From the NCBI GenBank assembly GCA_038064195.1, contig JBBTTO010000002.1:539722-603721 (forward strand): DNA of 64,000 bases, in the 5' to 3' direction. The notes below the pieces were generated by a model. That model saw only the letters and a program-made list of their open reading frames with translations. It did not search any database and was not told where the DNA came from. The stretch is from Patescibacteria group bacterium. GTDB taxonomy: Bacteria > Patescibacteriota > Microgenomatia > Levybacterales > UBA12049. The position numbers and the translations under genes are program-made. Positions within the stretch are counted from its first letter, which is position 1, and each line of letters begins with the position of its first letter. This document shows, in pieces, positions 6,790 to 42,745 of the stretch.

Positions 6790-7968
6790 ATGCTTATACG
6801 TCCTCAGACGTCAAATTTCGCCAAAATCCGTGTCATTGGAGTTGGTGGTGGAGGCGGAAATGCCGTCACTTCGATGATCACCCATAACAACATTCAAGGT
6901 GTTGATTTTGTCTCAATCAATACTGACGCCCAGGCTCTCCTTCGTAACCCCGCCATGACCAAGGTCCAAATCGGTGAAAACCTCACCAAAGGTTTGGGTT
7001 CAGGTGGAGATCCTGAGATAGGTCGTCAGGCTGCTGAGGAGTCGGCTGAGAAGATCAAAGATATGCTGGAGGGATCAGACATGGTCTTTTTGACAGCCGG
7101 GATGGGCGGAGGATCAGGTACAGGGGCCACATCTATTATTGCCAAAATTGCCAAAGAGGTAGGAGCTCTGACTGTCGCAGTTGTTACCAAGCCGTTCTCT
7201 TTTGAAGGCACTCGACGCATGGTCGCGGCTGAGGAGGGAATTGAAAGTCTTAAAGATAAAGTAGATACACTCATTGTTATCCCCAACCAGCGCATCATGG
7301 ATGTCGTTGACCGCAAGCTCTCACTTCTTGAGGCCTTCAAAGTTGCGGATTCTGTTCTCTCCCAGGGAGTCCAGGGTATCTCTGAAATCATTACGCTTCC
7401 CGGGTTAATCAATGTTGATTTTGCCGATATTCGGACCATTATGTCTAACGCCGGCTCGGCGCTCATGGGTATTGGGACGGGGATAGGCGAGAACAGGGCG
7501 CAAGCTGCCGCCAGAGCGGCCATTGCTTCACCTCTTTTGGAGGTAACGATGGATGGTGCTCGGGGAGTACTGTTCAATATAGTTGGCGGTAACGACCTGA
7601 CAATGACTGAGGTCGATGAAGCAGCCAAGATCATCTCAACCTCAGCCGACCCCGATGCCAACATTATTTTCGGCGCGACCATCGATGAATCGATGCATGA
7701 TCAGATCCGTATTACTGTAGTCGCAACTGGTTTTGATCAGACCAAGCAACGCCTGCAGCAGTTCGTCGCACCCCATTATGCGCCGCAAAAGCCTGTCAGT
7801 GAATACAACCCGCTTGTTGTGAACAGCGGCACGATGAGTAGTAACGGATCGGGTATTACCCGGGAGGAAGAGAGAATAGAGCCTGAGCCTCAGTCATCTG
7901 AGCCAGCACCCAAAGAATCAGATGAAGATAAATGGGACATCCCTGCATTCCTCAGGCAGAGAAATTGA
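6790..7968 (+). CDS. ftsZ: Cell-division GTPase FtsZ
   Basis: [10 protein letters not shown] tubulin signature and the conserved C-terminal tail ...[10 protein letters not shown]-stop. Confidence 0.95.
7939..7966 (+). repeat. Copy A of the 28-nt core ATCCCTGCATTCCTCAGGCAGAGAAATT. This is the genuine ftsZ 3' end, encoding IPAFLRQRN.
   Basis: Identical 28-mer recurs at 9715-9742. Diverged copies at 38118, 40030 and 41987. Confidence 0.9.
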
Positions 7969-8068
7969 CTTTCAGTTTTCATATTGCCTCCCTATTAACC
8001 CGCGGCTAAACGATTAGCAAGAGCATAAAACATATCGAATCATCTCATCCTTTTGATATACTGCAGTA

Positions 8069-8725
8069 GTGAATGAATATTTTAATACAGAAGTTGTAAC
8101 CTCCACCTTACGAAAGATGGTAGATGTTCTTGAAGAAAACAATATCGAATATCGTTTTTTAGGTTCTGTTGTTATTGCTGCTATTAATGGTCGTTTACAT
8201 CGAAATTTGGGGGATTTAGACTTCGTGATTGATTCTGAGGGGCGGGAGGTATTATATAAACACCTAAAACATTTCGGATTTAAACCCGCTCCTGGAATGT
8301 TTGCATTTGCTCGTAAATACCTGTGCTTAGAGCAGTTTACTCATGATGACTTTCTTGGGGTAGGGTACTTTTATGGGAAGTTTCAGCAAGATGGCTCATT
8401 CATTATGGGTAATAAGCAGTCGAATGTAAGAGTAGATGCTTTTGCACTAGAAAAGACGAAGTATACTCTTGGTGGGGTAAGTTTTATGGGTATTCCTCAA
8501 AGAGCAGCTGCTGCAGGTGTAAAAGAATCTGAATCAAACCCAAAGAGAAAATTTGAGAAGAAGATTCTAAAAGAGAAGGGCATAGAACCTTTCAAGAACA
8601 ATTACATTCACGTAACTATCTATGGAATAAATGCAGATTGGGTATACCATTTGTCTATGGCAATTCTTAATGTTATAGGAGCAGTAAGAGTAAAATTTGG
8701 TTTGGCATTTGACCCCTGGAGATAG
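8069..8725 (+). CDS. Pol-beta-fold nucleotidyltransferase, Lnu/ANT-like (lincosamide/aminoglycoside nucleotidyltransferase-like)
   Basis: GS-x14-DLDF with HRNLGDLDFVID, which resembles the LnuA-type ...GGWGVDVLTGKQQREHRDIDIDF core. The size (218 aa) fits that family. Confidence 0.45.
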   Translation: MNEYFNTEVVTSTLRKMVDVLEENNIEYRFLGSVVIAAINGRLHRNLGDLDFVIDSEGREVLYKHLKHFGFKPAPGMFAFARKYLCLEQFTHDDFLGVGYFYGKFQQDGSFIMGNKQSNVRVDAFALEKTKYTLGGVSFMGIPQRAAAAGVKESESNPKRKFEKKILKEKGIEPFKNNYIHVTIYGINADWVYHLSMAILNVIGAVRVKFGLAFDPWR

Positions 8726-8839: not shown

Positions 8840-9589
8840 ATGAAAGATTACCCATTTAAAACACAAGAGGAAGCAATTAAATATATACAAAAACTATTCA
8901 GACGAATAGGCACTACTCCAGGAGAGAAAGTTTTTTACAAAGAAAGTGGCATGAAATTATACCCACTTCAAAAACTTGGCTTCTCCAATTATGGTCAATT
9001 AGTAAGGGAAGCAGAATTGCCTCCTAATAAGTTTGATAAAACTAAATATACCGAGGATTTTTTAATTAAAGAATTTATAAAAATGATTAGAAAGAATAAA
9101 AAATGGCCTACAAAAGCTGAATTGGATATTAAACACTTTAATGATCCAAATTTTCCTACCTCAGCAACATTCTATAAAAAATTTGGCTTAGTTAAGGGTA
9201 TGGCTGAAAATATCTTAGATTATACCTATGGGAAAAAAGGTTATAAAGACGTGAGAGACATATGCAATGAGATACTCATGAAATATGATAATTCAATGTC
9301 AAATGAAGAAGGAGATTCAAGAAGTGGTTATGTTTATATCCTTAAAAACGGAGGTCGACAAGAATATAAAATCGGGATTAGCGATAGTATACCCAAAAGA
9401 GGAATGCAATTGTCAACATTATCTCCTGAAAATTTAGAATTAATACATTCCATAAAGGCAACTAGTCCTAAAGCTGTTGAAAGATTTCTTCATGACAAAT
9501 TTAATAGCAAAAGAATACAAGGAGAATGGTTTAATCTATCAACGTCCGACATAAAATGGATTAAGAAATGGAACGGAAATGTTCTATAG
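8840..9589 (+). CDS. T5orf172 (GIY-YIG-superfamily) domain protein with two N-terminal homing-endonuclease-associated-type repeats
   Basis: C-terminal GYVYILKNGGRQEYKIGIS...R...L...W motif of the T5orf172/MUG113-like GIY-YIG family. Duplicated ...P..(F/Y)...F..YG repeat units in the N-terminal half. Confidence 0.5.
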   Translation: MKDYPFKTQEEAIKYIQKLFRRIGTTPGEKVFYKESGMKLYPLQKLGFSNYGQLVREAELPPNKFDKTKYTEDFLIKEFIKMIRKNKKWPTKAELDIKHFNDPNFPTSATFYKKFGLVKGMAENILDYTYGKKGYKDVRDICNEILMKYDNSMSNEEGDSRSGYVYILKNGGRQEYKIGISDSIPKRGMQLSTLSPENLELIHSIKATSPKAVERFLHDKFNSKRIQGEWFNLSTSDIKWIKKWNGNVL

Positions 9590-9714
9590 TCCCATACATA
9601 ATTGATCATTGACCTTTCAACTAAAACATCGTAATTTTCCTTAGGTTTTTTTAGTCCATTCGGCAGGCTCAGGATAAATAAGAATTGAAGCTAAAATGAC
9701 TGGATGTCTATAAA

Positions 9715-9742
9715 ATCCCTGCATTCCTCAGGCAGAGAAATT
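9715..9742 (+). repeat. Copy B of the 28-nt ftsZ-tail core (exact repeat of 7939-7966)
   Basis: 28/28 identity with copy A. The upstream context in-frame encodes [14 protein letters not shown]-stop. Confidence 0.9.
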
Positions 9743-10016
9743 AATCTAAAAAATTCCTTACGTAGTTTTTGCAAAGAATGCTATACATAAGCGCGTCTTC
9801 TGCTTTTTTATCAATATCAGAATTAGAAAGAACATTTGGAATGTTATCTAAAATTTTTGCGAAATAAGGTTTGACTTTAGATCTGTTTACCTCCGTAATC
9901 CTTTTCAAAGATTCTTCAGAAAAACGTTCTGCCATCTTTATTGATCTCCTGTGATACCCTATAGCAACACGCATAAGATCCATAGATAGTGATTCTATAG
10001 CTATTTTATTATTCAT
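9741..10016 (-). CDS. Hypothetical small protein (91 aa). Second gene of a two-gene minus-strand pair.
   Basis: ORF only. 4-nt overlap with the upstream 71-aa ORF suggests translational coupling. Its stop abuts repeat copy B. Confidence 0.35.
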   Translation of the reverse strand: MNNKIAIESLSMDLMRVAIGYHRRSIKMAERFSEESLKRITEVNRSKVKPYFAKILDNIPNVLSNSDIDKKAEDALMYSILCKNYVRNFLD

Positions 10017-10228
10017 AATATTTCCTGAAAGAAGAATCGGGTTAATGCATCATATCGTTTTCTAATTTCAGGATCAAGAATCTCATTTCCAGCGTTATTA
10101 TCTGTGGGTCTGATGTTAATAAAGGAATTGAAGTCAATATCTATTACTGTTTTGATGTACGAATCGAACTGTTCTTTTAGATTTTCAATTTCTTTTTTTG
10201 AATAAGGTTCAGCTTTAGTAATAATCAC
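10013..10228 (-). CDS. Hypothetical small protein (71 aa)
   Basis: ORF only, coupled to the 91-aa ORF. Divergent from the 10384 gene. Confidence 0.35.
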   Translation of the reverse strand: MIITKAEPYSKKEIENLKEQFDSYIKTVIDIDFNSFINIRPTDNNAGNEILDPEIRKRYDALTRFFFQEIL

Positions 10229-37850: not shown

Positions 37851-37924
37851 GGATCCTTAGCTCAGTTGGTTAGAGCGTTGCATTCACATTGCAAAGGTCG
37901 GAAGTTCGAGTCTTCTAGGATCCA
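37851..37924 (+). tRNA. tRNA-Val (anticodon CAC), CCA not encoded
   Basis: Folded by hand. 7-bp acceptor GGATCCT/AGGATCC. D-arm TAGCTCAGTTGGTTAGAGC. Anticodon stem TTGCA/TGCAA with loop TTCACAT. T-arm GGAAGTTCGAGTCTTCT. Discriminator A. Confidence 0.85.
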
Positions 37925-37944
37925 CATTCCGCGTTGGTTCCCTG

Positions 37945-38404: not shown

Positions 38405-38433
38405 TTGATAAACTTAAAGTTTTGATGTATAAT
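38405..38433 (+). promoter_or_regulatory. Candidate promoter (TTGATA - 17 nt - TATAAT). The ATG at 38440 lies 7 nt after the -10 (leaderless). Shared 12-mer ATTGTGCGACGT at 38380-38391.
   Basis: Hexamers read directly. The 12-mer is identical to 8761-8772. Confidence 0.4.
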
Positions 38434-38439
38434 TTCACT

Positions 38440-38856
38440 ATGAATCAATCTAAGGTGAACTTTATTCATTTATGTGATGCTGCAACTATTGACGGGTCAG
38501 GTAAATTAAATATGCTTGGAATATTTAGCATAATTTATCTACAAGAAATCCCTGGTAAGTTTCCAAAGTTCACTGCAGTTGTGAGTATCGGAATTGAGGG
38601 GAAAGAAGGCTCAAAAAATATTTTAGATATTAAAATTGTTGCGCCAGATAATAAAGATTTGACTGTTAACCCTCCCATAAAAACTGAATTTACTACACCT
38701 AAAATACCTTTTAAAAAAACACCAACGCTTAATTTAATTCTTGATATAGGCAATCTCGGATTTAACACTGGTGGGAAACACACCCTAAATGTTTTTTTAA
38801 ATGGGAAGAATATTGGTTCTAAAAGTTTCGATGTTGAAAAAAGAGAGGTTAAATAA
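38440..38856 (+). CDS. Hypothetical protein, gene 1 of a tightly coupled three-gene cassette (the ORF track starts at a TTG at 38422 inside the -10)
   Basis: ORF with no recognisable domain. 2-nt gap to the next gene. Confidence 0.5.
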   Translation: MNQSKVNFIHLCDAATIDGSGKLNMLGIFSIIYLQEIPGKFPKFTAVVSIGIEGKEGSKNILDIKIVAPDNKDLTVNPPIKTEFTTPKIPFKKTPTLNLILDIGNLGFNTGGKHTLNVFLNGKNIGSKSFDVEKREVK

Positions 38857-38858
38857 AT

Positions 38859-39359
38859 ATGTGGGTAACACCTATACCAGCAACTCAAACAGCCGTTAAT
38901 GATTTTTCAGAAAGAAACCAATTAACAAGTGGCTTCGTTAGCAATGCTTTGAAAGTGGAAAGCTTGAAACCATTGCAAAACCTAACATCGGTATACGTGT
39001 CTGGAGCAACAATTATTGAAGGCATCATAGCTTTCCGACCCCAGCCTATACAAAACATGCTCAGTTCTGGTGTGGTAACACTTGCGGGTAATTATCCTGA
39101 GGAACAGGGGTTGAAGGCATTAGATTTTGTCGATATGACAACTCAGACTATGTTAAATTATTTTGACCCAAGTATTCAAAGGGGTCTTCCTGCTCCTAGC
39201 GAAACTTTAGTAAAAGACGAACAAGATGAGCTTATAGATTATATGTTAAAAAATGAAAATGTAGAATTTCACCCTCATGCGAAAACCATGCAGATTACTG
39301 TAAAAATTGGCAAAGCAGAGCACATCGTCCCTCAAATATCTATAGATGATGACGAATAA
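38859..39359 (+). CDS. Hypothetical protein, gene 2 of the cassette
   Basis: ORF with no recognisable domain. Its stop overlaps the next start (ATAATG). Confidence 0.5.
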   Translation: MWVTPIPATQTAVNDFSERNQLTSGFVSNALKVESLKPLQNLTSVYVSGATIIEGIIAFRPQPIQNMLSSGVVTLAGNYPEEQGLKALDFVDMTTQTMLNYFDPSIQRGLPAPSETLVKDEQDELIDYMLKNENVEFHPHAKTMQITVKIGKAEHIVPQISIDDDE

Positions 39360-39910
39360 TGAGTCAAAGATTCAAATGGTATAAGCGAGTATCAAGTGCT
39401 TCAGATTTGGAGCAAGGGGATTTTATTTATGGGTGTCCAATTATTGTTCCCCCAGACGAATATCCTGAACGTTTAGAAAATGCAACCATAAATACCACAG
39501 TTAAATCAAATAACGTTATAATTCTGACTCAATCATGCGACTTAATTGGAACCAGAGATAAACCAGAAGTTATTTTGGTCTGTCCGTATTGGGAGTTTCA
39601 TGAAGTTAAAGAGTCAAATCCCACATTATTAAGTAAGAGCTTTATAGAATCTGTAAAAAAGGGCTATCGGCCACGCTTCCACATTCTTAATAAATGCGAT
39701 ATAAATGGACACAAAAAGGAATATATGCTAGTAGACTTTACATATGTCTACGCTATCCCTACAGTTTCGCTCCCTAAGATTTTAACTCGGAATAAGACTA
39801 GGTTAAGAATGCTTCCTCCATACAGAGAACAGTTTGCCCAATCTTTTGCACACTTTTATAGTAGAATAGGGTTGCCAGAAAATTTGCCTGCCGGAATCGG
39901 TAGCATATAA
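39359..39910 (+). CDS. Hypothetical protein, gene 3 of the cassette (four conserved-looking Cys, including a QSCDL motif)
   Basis: ORF with no recognisable domain. Confidence 0.5.
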   Translation: MSQRFKWYKRVSSASDLEQGDFIYGCPIIVPPDEYPERLENATINTTVKSNNVIILTQSCDLIGTRDKPEVILVCPYWEFHEVKESNPTLLSKSFIESVKKGYRPRFHILNKCDINGHKKEYMLVDFTYVYAIPTVSLPKILTRNKTRLRMLPPYREQFAQSFAHFYSRIGLPENLPAGIGSI

Positions 39911-40007
39911 ATCTGTTGGTTGACTTCTTAGAGCTTCTTTGTTAAATTCATCTTGTAGACTTAAAAAGCAAACTTTATTTTCAGGTGTTTTACTTGAATT
40001 TAGCTTC

Positions 40008-40059
40008 AAAAGTAGGGGATGACTCATGAATCCCCGCATTCCTCAGACAGCGTAATTAA
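40008..40059 (+). repeat. Copy C: AAAAGTAGGGGATGACTCATGA + ATCCCCGCATTCCTCAGACAGCGTAATTAA. The core still encodes IPAFLRQRN-stop via synonymous changes.
   Basis: 25/30 nt identity to the ftsZ end, with all differences synonymous in the FtsZ reading frame. The 5' flank is shared with copy D. Confidence 0.7.
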
Positions 40060-40125
40060 CTAGTTTTAGCTTCAACTTTCTAGTAAGCACCTTAGGGTGC
40101 TTTTTTAATTGTCATAGTTTCAGCA

Positions 40126-40798
40126 CTACCAATATACAATGTCGCCTTTAGCTGTGTATAAAACGATTTTAAAAAATCTACTTTGATCAACAATAACTTT
40201 TCTTATATATGAAGGTTTTATTGATATTTTCGAGATGGATTCATCGAGATTGAAAAGGTCTCTGTTGGCAAGAACGAACTTTCTCACTTTTGTCTCTTCA
40301 TTGTTAATAACACCATCTCTATGGACAAGAATGTTTCTGATCTCAATATAACGTTGAAGTGTAGTAAGAAGCTCATCTGAAAGTGAAGTTATATTTGGGT
40401 GATTGGATTTCTGTAGAAGCTCTCTAAACCATTTTTCGAAGAGGCTCATTTTATGTTCATGTTTAGGATTGTATGTTATTGAAGGGTTATTTTTCGAAAT
40501 TGTTCTGGAGATAAGATCAATATGCTTTTCAAATGCAGTGTTGAGTGTAATTCCCAAACCACTTAGCAAATTCCTTTCCAGCTCAGATATCATAAATGAG
40601 TCGTCTGAAAAGGAGTCGATTCGTGATTGGTAATACTCTTCGTTCTTAATTCGTTCATGCTCGTTTTCATTTATCCACTGTTGTGCAGAAACTTCGAGCT
40701 CGTCCTTTTTTTTTAGATATTAGTTCTTCAATTTCTCCAAGAACAAAAATACTTGTTTCAAAGTCAAAGTGAGGGTCAATAAATGATATTATTGGCAT
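40126..40798 (-). pseudogene. HEPN-like (R-x4-H) protein gene, apparently frameshifted at an A9 tract (plus-strand T9 at 40712-40720). The annotated 155-aa ORF (40126-40593) is the downstream frame. An ATG at 40798 opens the upstream frame 8 nt after the PIN gene stop.
   Basis: Frames traced by hand. MPIISFIDPHFDFETSIFVLGEIEELISKKK then shifts +1 into ...DELEVSAQQWINENEHE...MISELERNLL.... With 8 rather than 9 A the two frames fuse into a ~225-aa protein. EIRNILVHRDG matches the HEPN Rx4-6H motif. Confidence 0.45.
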
Positions 40799-40804
40799 TT
40801 TCTT

Positions 40805-41929
40805 CTAAAATATAGTGTAGATTTCCTCACAATTAGGACAAACTTCACCAAATTTTACTTCTCCAGAAGCACAATACCCGCAAGTTTTATCAATTTTTAT
40901 GTCAGGTTTATAGAATGAGCTATATTTTGCTAATAGTTCTTCGGGTATTATCTCCTGATATTTCTCAATAAGATGACTAAAGAATGTTTTGACGTCATCA
41001 TCTTCTATAATCAGCAGTATTTGGTCATTATCTAGGCCAGCTTGAAGCATCTTACATACTTCATTATCGGAAAAGTTAGTAAATAATGATAATCTTCTAA
41101 GAACAGCATGTGTTGTTGCGAATGATGGGCTTTCTACTAAGATTTGAACATAAGGCTCATGTTCTAATTCACTTGCGAGTTTTATATTTGGGAAGTGCTG
41201 ACTGAAAAATGCAGAGAGGGTAGTGTAAAAGAAGATTTGAGAGTTTTTTTCTTGATTCCATTCTTCTTGTAGGAAATCTGAAATTGCTTCAGCACTAATC
41301 TTAGAAATATAGTCTTTATCTTTTGCAATCAAATGTAATCCTTCCTCGTCTGGAACTGCGCTTAGAAGGCTTTCCCAATTTATTGAATCACCATAAGAGC
41401 CATCTTTGCCAGGTGGGTTTCCTATTTCATATCTACGTCTTGCTTGGTTTAGCAACTCAGAAGTAGTAGGGATAACCTTAGCAAGATTAAACAAGTTAAG
41501 AATTAGCTTGTCAGCATCTAAAGACTTATTTTCTATATCTACATGAACTTTTTGAAGGAGTTGATCTTTTGTCCGTATATAATCCCCAATGAGCGATTTT
41601 AGTTTGGAGTATTCTTGATAATCGTGGACGAACCTAGGAAATGAGTCAGGAATTGATTGAACACTCATTACTTTGAGAGAACTGGCAATCTTTGCCTCCC
41701 TATTTCTCCGATACTCGCCTATTGTTTGTTGAGGAACAAAAAGATTTATTTTCTTAGCTTTGATAGCTACCTCTAGTTTTCTAAGTTCTTCAATATCATC
41801 TTTAGAAAAATCATAGAATGTTAAATAAATATTTGTGTCGATAAACAAATTCATGAGCTCTATTATATCACTTGATTGACTTTCATTAGCTTTGCTGTTA
41901 AATTCTTTTCTAAGACATAAGAAAGTCAT
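40805..41929 (-). CDS. PIN-like nuclease domain protein with a C-terminal CxxC...CxxC zinc ribbon
   Basis: N-terminal LFIDTNIYL (PIN first-Asp motif), downstream acidic residues including GKDGSYGDSINW, and C-terminal CGYCASGEVKFGEVCPNCEE. Confidence 0.45.
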   Translation of the reverse strand: MTFLCLRKEFNSKANESQSSDIIELMNLFIDTNIYLTFYDFSKDDIEELRKLEVAIKAKKINLFVPQQTIGEYRRNREAKIASSLKVMSVQSIPDSFPRFVHDYQEYSKLKSLIGDYIRTKDQLLQKVHVDIENKSLDADKLILNLFNLAKVIPTTSELLNQARRRYEIGNPPGKDGSYGDSINWESLLSAVPDEEGLHLIAKDKDYISKISAEAISDFLQEEWNQEKNSQIFFYTTLSAFFSQHFPNIKLASELEHEPYVQILVESPSFATTHAVLRRLSLFTNFSDNEVCKMLQAGLDNDQILLIIEDDDVKTFFSHLIEKYQEIIPEELLAKYSSFYKPDIKIDKTCGYCASGEVKFGEVCPNCEEIYTIF

Positions 41930-41964
41930 TTCTTAATAGGTGTCTTTTAGGAGTTTTTAAGGCT

Positions 41965-42006
41965 AAAAGTAGGGGACAACTAATGAATTCCCGCATTTCT
42001 AAGACG
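41965..42006 (+). repeat. Copy D: AAAAGTAGGGGACAACTAATGA + ATTCCCGCATTTCTAAGACG. The core encodes IPAFLRR.. (synonymous changes plus loss of one codon).
   Basis: Aligns with copy C over ~45 nt. Overlaps the stop of the 41999-42745 gene. Confidence 0.6.
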
Positions 42007-42745
42007 TTTTTACTGCGACAATTGAAATATTGGATTCGCCAAACATTGGGATTGTATAGGAGTCAAGTGTTGTAACCAGATTGGATAAATGTCCCCGAAT
42101 AAATCTGACTGACTGTCCAAGAATTTTACTTGTAAATAAAAAATTCCTAAGAACACCTTCATGCCTACCTGACTGAATTACCTTATAGCCATTATTCTCT
42201 ACAAGAGATATAAGATTAGATAATGTATAACGTCGTAAGTGTCCGACCTCTTTATCAAACCTGTTTAACAATCCGAGACGGTACAAGGGCGCATTTAAAG
42301 AAGGAGTTGTAATAACAAGTAATCCATTTGGTTTGAGAACACTTCTGATATCACGTAAAGCTTTTGCATCATCCTCAAGGTGTTCGATAACTTCCGAGAA
42401 TATGACTAGGTCATAGTTTTTTGTTGGAATTTTAGATGGAAATGCAGCATTAATAAAAGTTATCTTTTTATTAAGATTAAATAATTCAGCATTTTTTCTT
42501 GCAAGTTCCACAGCACTTTTAGAAATTTCTATTCCAGTAACTTCTTTACCTTTTGAAGCAAGGTAAAAATCTATCGTACCAACTCCGGAACCTATATCTA
42601 ATATCTTTTTGACTTTTGGAAGGTAGGGTTTTAAAATTCTTATCAAATGACGATATGTAAAATCATTTTCATTGATGATTCTTTTCTGTAGACGTCGATC
42701 TTGATGAAATGCTTGATAGAGAGCTAAATCTTTTTTCATAGTCAT
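41999..42745 (-). CDS. Class I SAM-dependent methyltransferase
   Basis: Motif I ILDIGSGVGTIDF and post-I acidic residue (EISKSA). DLVIFSEVIEHL motif. Confidence 0.7.
   Translation of the reverse strand: MTMKKDLALYQAFHQDRRLQKRIINENDFTYRHLIRILKPYLPKVKKILDIGSGVGTIDFYLASKGKEVTGIEISKSAVELARKNAELFNLNKKITFINAAFPSKIPTKNYDLVIFSEVIEHLEDDAKALRDIRSVLKPNGLLVITTPSLNAPLYRLGLLNRFDKEVGHLRRYTLSNLISLVENNGYKVIQSGRHEGVLRNFLFTSKILGQSVRFIRGHLSNLVTTLDSYTIPMFGESNISIVAVKTS

Follow-up and report, generated by a model that had tools for sequence, protein, structure and literature searches.

In this study, we analysed two adjoining genes on the minus strand of a 64,000-nucleotide (nt) stretch of DNA, hereafter the window, from a Patescibacteria group bacterium (GenBank assembly GCA_038064195.1, contig JBBTTO010000002.1, positions 539,722 to 603,721). 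Gene 1 encodes a PIN-domain protein, and gene 2 encodes a HEPN-type protein whose reading frame is broken by a run of nine A (A9). We consider it probable that these are two unrelated, normally stand-alone nuclease genes lying head to tail in an accessory cassette, and that the HEPN gene has recently been inactivated. The host belongs to the groundwater Patescibacteria (Hainich), and the population sampled is one clonal strain. A first-pass annotation of the window had described the pair, its tract and its flanking repeats; all of these elements were confirmed, the pair and the tract on the minus strand, with slightly corrected coordinates. In the NCBI records, the two proteins are listed as a PIN domain-containing protein of 349 amino acids (aa; MEK7605452.1) and a hypothetical protein of 155 aa. 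The features of the pair are as follows.

Positions 40805 to 41854, minus strand: the PIN_12/DUF4935 gene (gene 1), 349 aa plus stop, delimited from the Pfam PIN_12 match and the starts of homologs.
Positions 40829 to 40882, minus strand: the zinc-ribbon-like tail of the PIN protein, CxxC-x10-CxxC, C325-C342, seen in the sequence.
Positions 40706 to 40798, minus strand: codons 1-31 of gene 2 (MPIISFIDPHFDFETSIFVLGEIEELISKKK), an N-terminus conserved in the homolog P0002 and in most family members.
Positions 40706 to 40714, minus strand: the run of nine A (T9 on the plus strand), which is the frameshift site, by direct reading.
Positions 40126 to 40705, minus strand: codons 32-223 of gene 2 plus stop, in the +1 frame, a single frame with no second lesion.
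Positions 40126 to 40593, minus strand: the annotated 155-aa open reading frame (ORF), part of gene 2 (MEK7605451.1).
Positions 40321 to 40338, minus strand: the HEPN Rx4H motif of gene 2, R154-N-I-L-V-H159, from a 21-sequence alignment (A3).

The reading of the sequence showed that gene 2 is broken after 31 codons by the A9 tract, as had been proposed, and that the tract lies at 40706-40714, six bases away from the position first given (40712-40720). As assembled, the ORF that begins at the ATG at 40798 has 43 codons, runs out of frame after codon 31 and stops at 40667. With eight A (A8) the two frames fuse into one ORF of 223 aa, rather than the ~225 aa first estimated, and with eleven A (A11) into one of 224 aa, both ending at 40126, while addition of one A (A10) leads to a stop after 11 more codons. 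Downstream of the tract, 192 codons run without a further stop or frameshift, and the family-invariant residues are retained. A search with the repaired protein returned the annotated 155-aa fragment and one intact homolog, P0002 (223 aa, 45% identity, 100% coverage). Members of the gene-2 family are about 217-234 aa long and begin at residue 1. The alignment with P0002 was collinear over the junction, with the first 31 residues conserved (MxxISFxDPxFDFET...), indicating that the split is not a chance juxtaposition of two frames. At the tract site P0002 reads GTGAAAAATAAA and has no homopolymer, and the intact gene-2 homologs examined are single ORFs without a split at this site. The 155-aa ORF is unlikely to be an independent protein, because it would lack residues 1-68, which are conserved and make up helix 1 and some of helix 2 in the model, and the lack of a visible ribosome-binding site also disfavours it.

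The results of the assembly comparison showed A9 in all four short-read assemblies (L001-L004: ENA ERZ1292617 and Logan ERR3858128, SRR32696697 and SRR32696696, from at least four sequencing runs), each 100% identical to the window. Exact look-ups of the A8, A10 and A11 products among ~15 billion proteins returned none. A second T9 run in the window sits in frame within an intact 364-aa ORF, indicating that runs of this length are not as a rule miscalled in this sequence. In a long-read assembly of this strain (L096; ENA ERZ1286166, 721,594 bp) the tract read A7, and over 12.5 kb the assembly differed from the window by 0 mismatches and 36 homopolymer indels. Many genes in L096 are fragmented by indels, including parB, ftsW and a methyltransferase gene, so the truncated variants P0150-P0155 in the protein databases are spurious.

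To characterise the product of gene 2, we examined its motif, its relatives and its modelled fold. The HEPN-type Rx4H motif (EIRNILVHRDG) that had been pointed out is present, and in the 21-sequence alignment R154 and H159 were the only invariant columns, with N155, E90 and G162 nearly so. The family is rare: when 1.84 billion cluster representatives were searched exhaustively by profile, 29 clusters came up at E <= 1e-3, and most of these 29 proteins are 203-236 aa long and aligned from residue 1 or close to it. An AlphaFold2 model built with the 21-sequence alignment reached a predicted local distance difference test score (pLDDT) of 93.1 and a predicted template-modelling score (pTM) of 0.88; the 21-sequence alignment was required, as a two-sequence alignment gave an unusable model (pLDDT 41). 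The model is an all-alpha HEPN bundle in which the N-terminal helices are long and a beta-hairpin follows the motif. The PADLOC model RTasHEPN weakly matched 11 of the 21 members (best E 2.4e-5; window protein 0.028), and PADLOC 2.0 gave no full-length system match for gene 2. The gene-2 protein of the window matched no Pfam family. Among the gene-2 relatives, the best Pfam HEPN matches, both below threshold, were DUF3644 (E 0.022) and HEPN_RiboL-PSP (E 0.052), and a profile search of the Protein Data Bank (PDB) sequences with gene 2 returned nothing relevant. In BFVD, the only significant Foldseek match of the model was A0A8S5LJP3, an uncharacterised 215-aa protein of Myoviridae sp. ct6F13 (E 2.3e-4, template-modelling score 0.44), and from this match the gene-2 family may occur in phages too.

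Judged by its modelled fold and its motif, gene 2 appears to represent a new, rare and unclassified family of ~220-aa solo HEPN proteins. By analogy with HEPN domains elsewhere, its product would be a ribonuclease (RNase) and might act as a toxic or defence effector. Compared with the HepT toxins (PDB 7ae2, 5yep and 8xdj) and the minimal HEPN/DUF86 proteins (2hsb, 1ylm, 1jog and 1wwp), gene 2 is ~90 residues longer and differs in its long N-terminal helices and in the beta-hairpin after the motif. It also differs from the HEPN-MNT systems: it has no MNT partner in the nine loci with readable neighbours, and no significant Pfam HEPN match. It can also be compared to HEC-08, a single-gene HEPN defence protein with a DUF3644 HEPN domain and zinc ribbons (Payne et al. 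2024, bioRxiv 10.1101/2024.01.29.577857), and to the PADLOC RTasHEPN type, the HEPN proteins associated with defence reverse transcriptases, which share with gene 2 the solo HEPN effector form, an Rx4-6H motif (whose histidine is essential there) and defence-type neighbourhoods; for RTasHEPN, the profile matches of the family, although weak, are repeated across those 11 members. Unlike these systems, gene 2 has no adjacent reverse transcriptase, its similarity to them is marginal, and its family is without a known defence phenotype. The catalogue of predicted RNase effectors thereby gains a rare solo-HEPN family of 29 clusters, found beside TIR, Shedu-like and Schlafen-like genes.

Gene 1 is, by its sequence, a full member of the PIN_12/DUF4935 family and encodes a predicted nuclease. 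It had been described as a 374-aa protein with an N-terminal PIN-like motif and a C-terminal ribbon. The ORF as read (40805 to 41929, minus strand) does have 374 aa, holds LFIDTNIYL and ends in CGYC-x10-CPNC, but the gene itself is shorter: the NCBI model P0003 begins with MNLFIDTN, as do all 24 homologs in the alignment, indicating that the start lies at 41854 and that the 25 in-frame codons upstream of it (41855-41929) are outside the gene. A profile search bore out the PIN assignment, with a Pfam PIN_12 (PF16289) match that spans all 172 profile positions at E 1.1e-18 (68.7 bits; the cutoff is 32) and a secondary PIN_8 match at E 1.8e-8. Every invariant family residue in the 24-sequence alignment is retained in the window protein, including the acidic residues D6, E47, D115, D156, D179 and D181, which are putative metal ligands by the assignment of Matelska 2017. 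At least 441 homologs were found, ~320-350 aa long, at 40-55% identity and covering 85-98% of the query; they occur in many phyla (among them Vibrio, Legionella, Bacteroidota, Planctomycetota, Cyanobacteria and the Candidate Phyla Radiation (CPR)), a distribution both broad and patchy. Residues 227-301 match PADLOC PDC-S34 (E 4.8e-12), one of 145 untested "phage defence candidates" chosen by guilt-by-embedding (bioRxiv 10.1101/2024.01.29.577857); this match is partial, and PADLOC 2.0 gave no full-length system match for the PIN protein.

In the classification of Matelska et al. 2017 (PMC5499597), DUF4935 is placed in the VapC-like PIN group, its function is listed as unknown and its genes are usually monocistronic. 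The window protein shares with this family the full-length Pfam match, the length of ~330-350 aa, the PIN acidic residues, the N-terminal PIN domain followed by the C-terminal alpha/beta part, and the patchy spread. It differs in that the next gene starts 6 nt on, and in its C-terminus: a ribbon stands at the end of both the window protein and its nearest relative, whereas about half of the family ends in an acidic stretch followed by PF. The lineage-specific CxxC-x10-CxxC tail was present in 2 of 120 homologs, only P0003 (the window protein) and P0004 (the closest relative); in this DUF4935 PIN variant a zinc ribbon replaces the usual acidic C-terminal tail. Fifty-four of the 120 homologs (in the P0005-P0122 region of the set) end in PF, and 32 of the 54 have as their last residues at least two acidic ones and then [ILV]PF (such as DDIPF and EELPF). 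This acidic tail of the DUF4935 proteins resembles the C-terminal tip of the bacterial single-stranded DNA-binding protein (DDDIPF) and may be a docking peptide.

The cassette that holds both genes is of low GC content (0.34-0.35; the window as a whole has 0.40, and the core genes upstream of the island have 0.41-0.45), and the low-GC stretch comes after tRNA-Val (37851-37925). Its repeat boundaries, noted in the first pass, proved real: the direct repeat 39985-40048/41942-42005 is 73% identical, with 0 matches expected in shuffled sequences. To assess whether the pair recurs, we examined the loci around homologs of each gene. A gene-2 profile search of 80 loci around PIN homologs found 0 homologs, at 64 of these loci the 128 immediate neighbours showed no recurrent family, with gaps mostly of 50-300 nt, and the nearest PIN relative is stand-alone. 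Nine gene-2 loci were inspected individually; their neighbours are unrelated to one another, and no PIN gene lies near the other gene-2 homologs. Three of these contexts are given here.

L005, 8001-10431: a gene-2 homolog immediately followed by a Ser/Thr kinase and an AAA_18 protein.
L091, 868-3777: a gene-2 homolog that immediately follows a TIR_2 protein and precedes a Shedu-type SduA_C gene.
L088, 1851-3727: a gene-2 homolog upstream of a GrpB/LigT 2H-phosphoesterase-type gene.

Enzymes of the 2H-phosphoesterase class can act on the cyclic-phosphate RNA ends made by HEPN RNases. Other gene-2 homologs lie after a DUF5655 protein, downstream of groEL or near Schlafen/AlbA_2 genes, or are isolated. 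No MNT nucleotidyltransferase antitoxin was found beside gene 2, either in the window or at any of the nine other loci, which sets it apart from the HEPN-MNT arrangement.

Against this background, it is highly improbable that the PIN protein and the HEPN protein work as a single two-gene toxin or abortive-infection module, the reading suggested in the first-pass annotation. The two genes lie on the same strand, and the gap from the PIN stop codon to the ATG of gene 2 is 6 nt, not the 8 nt first reported, which suggests co-transcription; both are also predicted nucleases within a repeat-bounded, low-GC cassette. This arrangement, however, is not repeated in the 80 PIN loci, among their 128 neighbours or in the nine gene-2 loci, the nearest PIN relative is solo, DUF4935 genes are called monocistronic in the literature (PMC5499597), and no antitoxin-like partner such as MNT adjoins the pair. 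The adjacency is most plausibly that of two solo accessory nucleases in a common cassette, each with a possible defence-type role, and it serves as a caution that two adjoining nuclease genes in a compact CPR (Patescibacteria) genome need not be a system. Three further explanations concern the tract and the state of gene 2. That the frameshift is a sequencing or assembly artefact, with the gene intact in the organism, is hardly credible: homopolymers are error-prone and the long-read assembly shows A7, but the window and the four other assemblies all have A9, the other 9-nt run sits within an intact gene without breaking its frame, and the long-read assembly is wrong at its 36 homopolymers and would not restore the frame with A7. 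The A9 allele is therefore taken as real and as the consensus of a clonal population, because the four assemblies agree, the T9 elsewhere is in frame and the variants look like noise. We also regard as very unlikely a phase-variable contingency locus, in which replication slippage would switch gene 2 between ON (A8/A11) and OFF (A9/A10) within the population. A potentially costly gene with a homopolymer in its 5' coding region would suit such a locus, and phase-variable expression had been raised in the first pass; yet the four short-read assemblies, from several runs and a single clonal population, all carry A9 in their consensus, no protein product of another tract length is on record, and the only length variants (A7 in L096 and an A5-like form, P0125) come from noisy assemblies, of which L096 was the one examined. 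These two variants, and the shifted C-termini of P0150-P0153, were rejected as evidence of phase variation, as they look like homopolymer noise of error-prone assembly: P0125 has a further frameshift at a homopolymer, and in P0150-P0153 the shift falls at a T-run.

The remaining explanation, which we find unlikely though less so than the others, is that A9 acts as a functional throttle, with HEPN protein made at a low, stochastic level from slipped A8/A11 transcripts or by rare +1 shifts on AAA-AAG. Runs of 9 A/T cause slippage and yield mRNAs with up to 6 extra nt (PMC5009743), and an A11 tract in tssM of Citrobacter is rescued by transcriptional slippage (PMC4256274), so leaky full-length expression of gene 2 by this route is possible by analogy: A9 is long enough, A8 and A11 each restore the frame, and the 192 downstream codons are free of lesions, with all family-invariant residues kept. 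Like these slippage-rescued genes (tssM and the endosymbiont tracts in PMC5009743), gene 2 has at least nine A in an otherwise intact gene of an AT-rich small genome, and slippage could restore its frame. It differs from them in that its tract is not conserved in homologs, that it needs -1 or +2 nt and that it is known from DNA alone. Slippage on A9, moreover, mostly adds bases, and one added base gives the dead frame; no stimulatory signal is evident at the tract. Because the tract is missing from the homologs, a selected recoding signal is unlikely; a slippery site shared among homologs, of the kind expected for a programmed frameshift, was not seen, as P0002 has no homopolymer there and the intact homologs examined are unsplit ORFs of ~220 aa. 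A -1 ribosomal frameshift was rejected, since that frame stops after 11 codons. The option of a freshly inactivated gene, which the first pass had listed last, fits best, and we infer inactivation rather than regulated expression. In the simplest reading, a Lys-codon run AAA AAA AAG would have gained one A (A8 to A9), translation would end after 43 codons and leave the HEPN part out of frame, and this recent inactivation would have become fixed; minority A8/A11 transcripts may still give some full-length protein through RNA-polymerase slippage. Costly toxic effectors are often lost by fixed inactivation. A homopolymer break of this kind is most simply a pseudogene, which is a second caution.

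Several observations weigh against the reading of two stand-alone nuclease genes, one of them recently inactivated. The HEPN membership of gene 2, which is drawn from its predicted fold, its motif and weak profile matches, stands on the fold, the Rx4H motif and the RTasHEPN similarity, but no Pfam HEPN family reached threshold for gene 2 or its relatives, and Foldseek of the model against the PDB gave no significant match. The 6-nt spacing makes it probable that the PIN gene and gene 2 are co-transcribed, so a local functional link is possible. Low-frequency A8/A11 variants or slippage products may exist below the assembly consensus, and as all of the assemblies are of one clonal population (0 mismatches), they are silent on the stability of the tract over evolutionary time. 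Finally, the undamaged downstream frame fits continued use through slippage equally well as recent inactivation.

To analyse the repeats that bound the cassette, we aligned their copies within the window and in metagenome contigs. The repeat pair proved to be part of an element with a ~110-nt conserved core. The copies and associated features are listed below.

Positions 39920 to 40062, plus strand: repeat copy c1, with the box at 39920-39948, the core at 39955-40062 and IPAFLRQRN-stop at 40030-40059.
Positions 41876 to 42020, plus strand: repeat copy c2, with the box at 41876-41904, the core at 41912-42020 and IPAFLR... from 41987.
Positions 9677 to 9747, plus strand: repeat copy c3, a partial core that includes the 28-nt repeat 9715-9742, with the box at about 9600-9630.
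Positions 7939 to 7970, plus strand: a partial fourth copy, the real ftsZ end.
Positions 7939 to 7966, plus strand: the true 3' end of ftsZ, which is the left member of a perfect direct repeat of 28 nt; the right member is at 9715-9742 in c3.
Metagenome contigs, four further copies: L097 1245-1353 (minus), L098 556-663 and 2751-2860 (both minus), and L099 1534-1644 (plus).
Positions 40085 to 40110, terminator-like on both strands: a GC-rich hairpin between an A-run and a T-run, lying just past the gene-2 stop.

On the plus strand, a TTGAC[TC]-N17-TAnnnT box stands before each full copy; in this box the hexamers are conserved, the spacer sequence is variable and an extended -10 TG is often present; in c1 and c2 the box reads TTGACT-N17-TAAATT. 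In its 3' part, every copy codes for IPAFLRQ[RK][NS]-stop, with c2 diverging after IPAFLR; copy c2 also overlaps the stop of a methyltransferase gene (41999 to 42745, minus strand). IPAFLRQRN-stop corresponds to the last nine codons and stop of ftsZ, and the codons differ synonymously among the copies. This ftsZ gene (6790 to 7968, plus strand) follows ftsA and matches Pfam Tubulin (6e-50) and FtsZ_C (2.5e-36). In five of the seven copies an in-frame stop stands just before the Ile, indicating that the copies of the ftsZ tail are probably not translated. The hairpin at 40085-40110 is conserved next to the element in L098, and the c1 and L098a copies are followed by hairpin and T-run; from its sequence, the element looks like a small transcription unit. 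It was rejected as a small RNA gene: it has no Rfam match, its folding z-scores are weak (-2.1 and -1.7), and covariation was not seen; RNAalifold on the seven copies gave one hairpin and 0 compensatory pairs. The ftsZ-tail copy accounts for a 15-aa ORF (MRGFISHPLLLKLNS) that lies on the strand opposite to it. No integron attC-like R'/R'' consensus was seen by eye in the element, and a scan of viral contigs for the element returned nothing.

The 28-nt repeats at 7939-7966 and 9715-9742 bound a 1.75-kb segment of 34% GC that holds two genes: a nucleotidyltransferase-like gene (8069-8725, plus strand), with a weak Aminoglyc_resit match, and a T5orf172/MUG113 (GIY-YIG-like) gene (8840-9589, plus strand), with several phage PHROG matches. 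Beside it are two small genes reported as a convergent pair (9741-10016 and 10013-10228, both minus strand), one of them DUF5674-like. In L098 two copies of the element bound three other genes, and in L099 the element comes after SIR2-like and HNH genes.

These results suggest, as a possible but doubtful reading, that the flanking repeats are recombination sites of a small gene-cassette system that uses the ftsZ 3' end as its attachment sequence. The element would consist of the TTGAC[TC]-N17-TAnnnT box, a ~75-nt core and the last nine ftsZ codons plus stop, and direct copies of it would bound three cassettes of 1.7-2.1 kb (at the ftsZ end, around the PIN/HEPN pair and in L098), partly with defence-type genes. 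Synonymous differences among the copies are expected if each tracks the ftsZ of a different host. The pattern resembles insertion into a gene 3' end with duplication of the gene end, as in prophages e14 and 21, which integrate into the 3' end of icd in E. coli and duplicate it. As in that case, a cassette, here of low GC, lies between the true gene end and a displaced copy of it, which for ftsZ make up a perfect direct repeat of 28 nt, and the other ftsZ-end copies keep IPAFLRQRN-stop with synonymous differences. Unlike e14 and 21, the window cassettes are under 2 kb, the distant copies carry a promoter-like box, and no recombinase was seen in the three cassettes and no integrase in or beside the two of the window; this absence, and the location of c1 and c2 30 kb from ftsZ, count against the likeness. 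If the reading is true, it would be a new route by which ultra-small Patescibacteria genomes acquire and shuffle accessory genes, including defence-type genes, and the ftsZ-end repeats are a more consequential lead than the gene pair.

Between tRNA-Val and repeat copy c1 lies a three-gene operon (38422-39910, plus strand) that converges on the HEPN gene and is part of the same low-GC island as the PIN/HEPN pair. It encodes a 144-aa DUF6941 protein followed by two unknown proteins of 166 and 183 aa, with starts that overlap or abut, and its PHROG matches are weak only.

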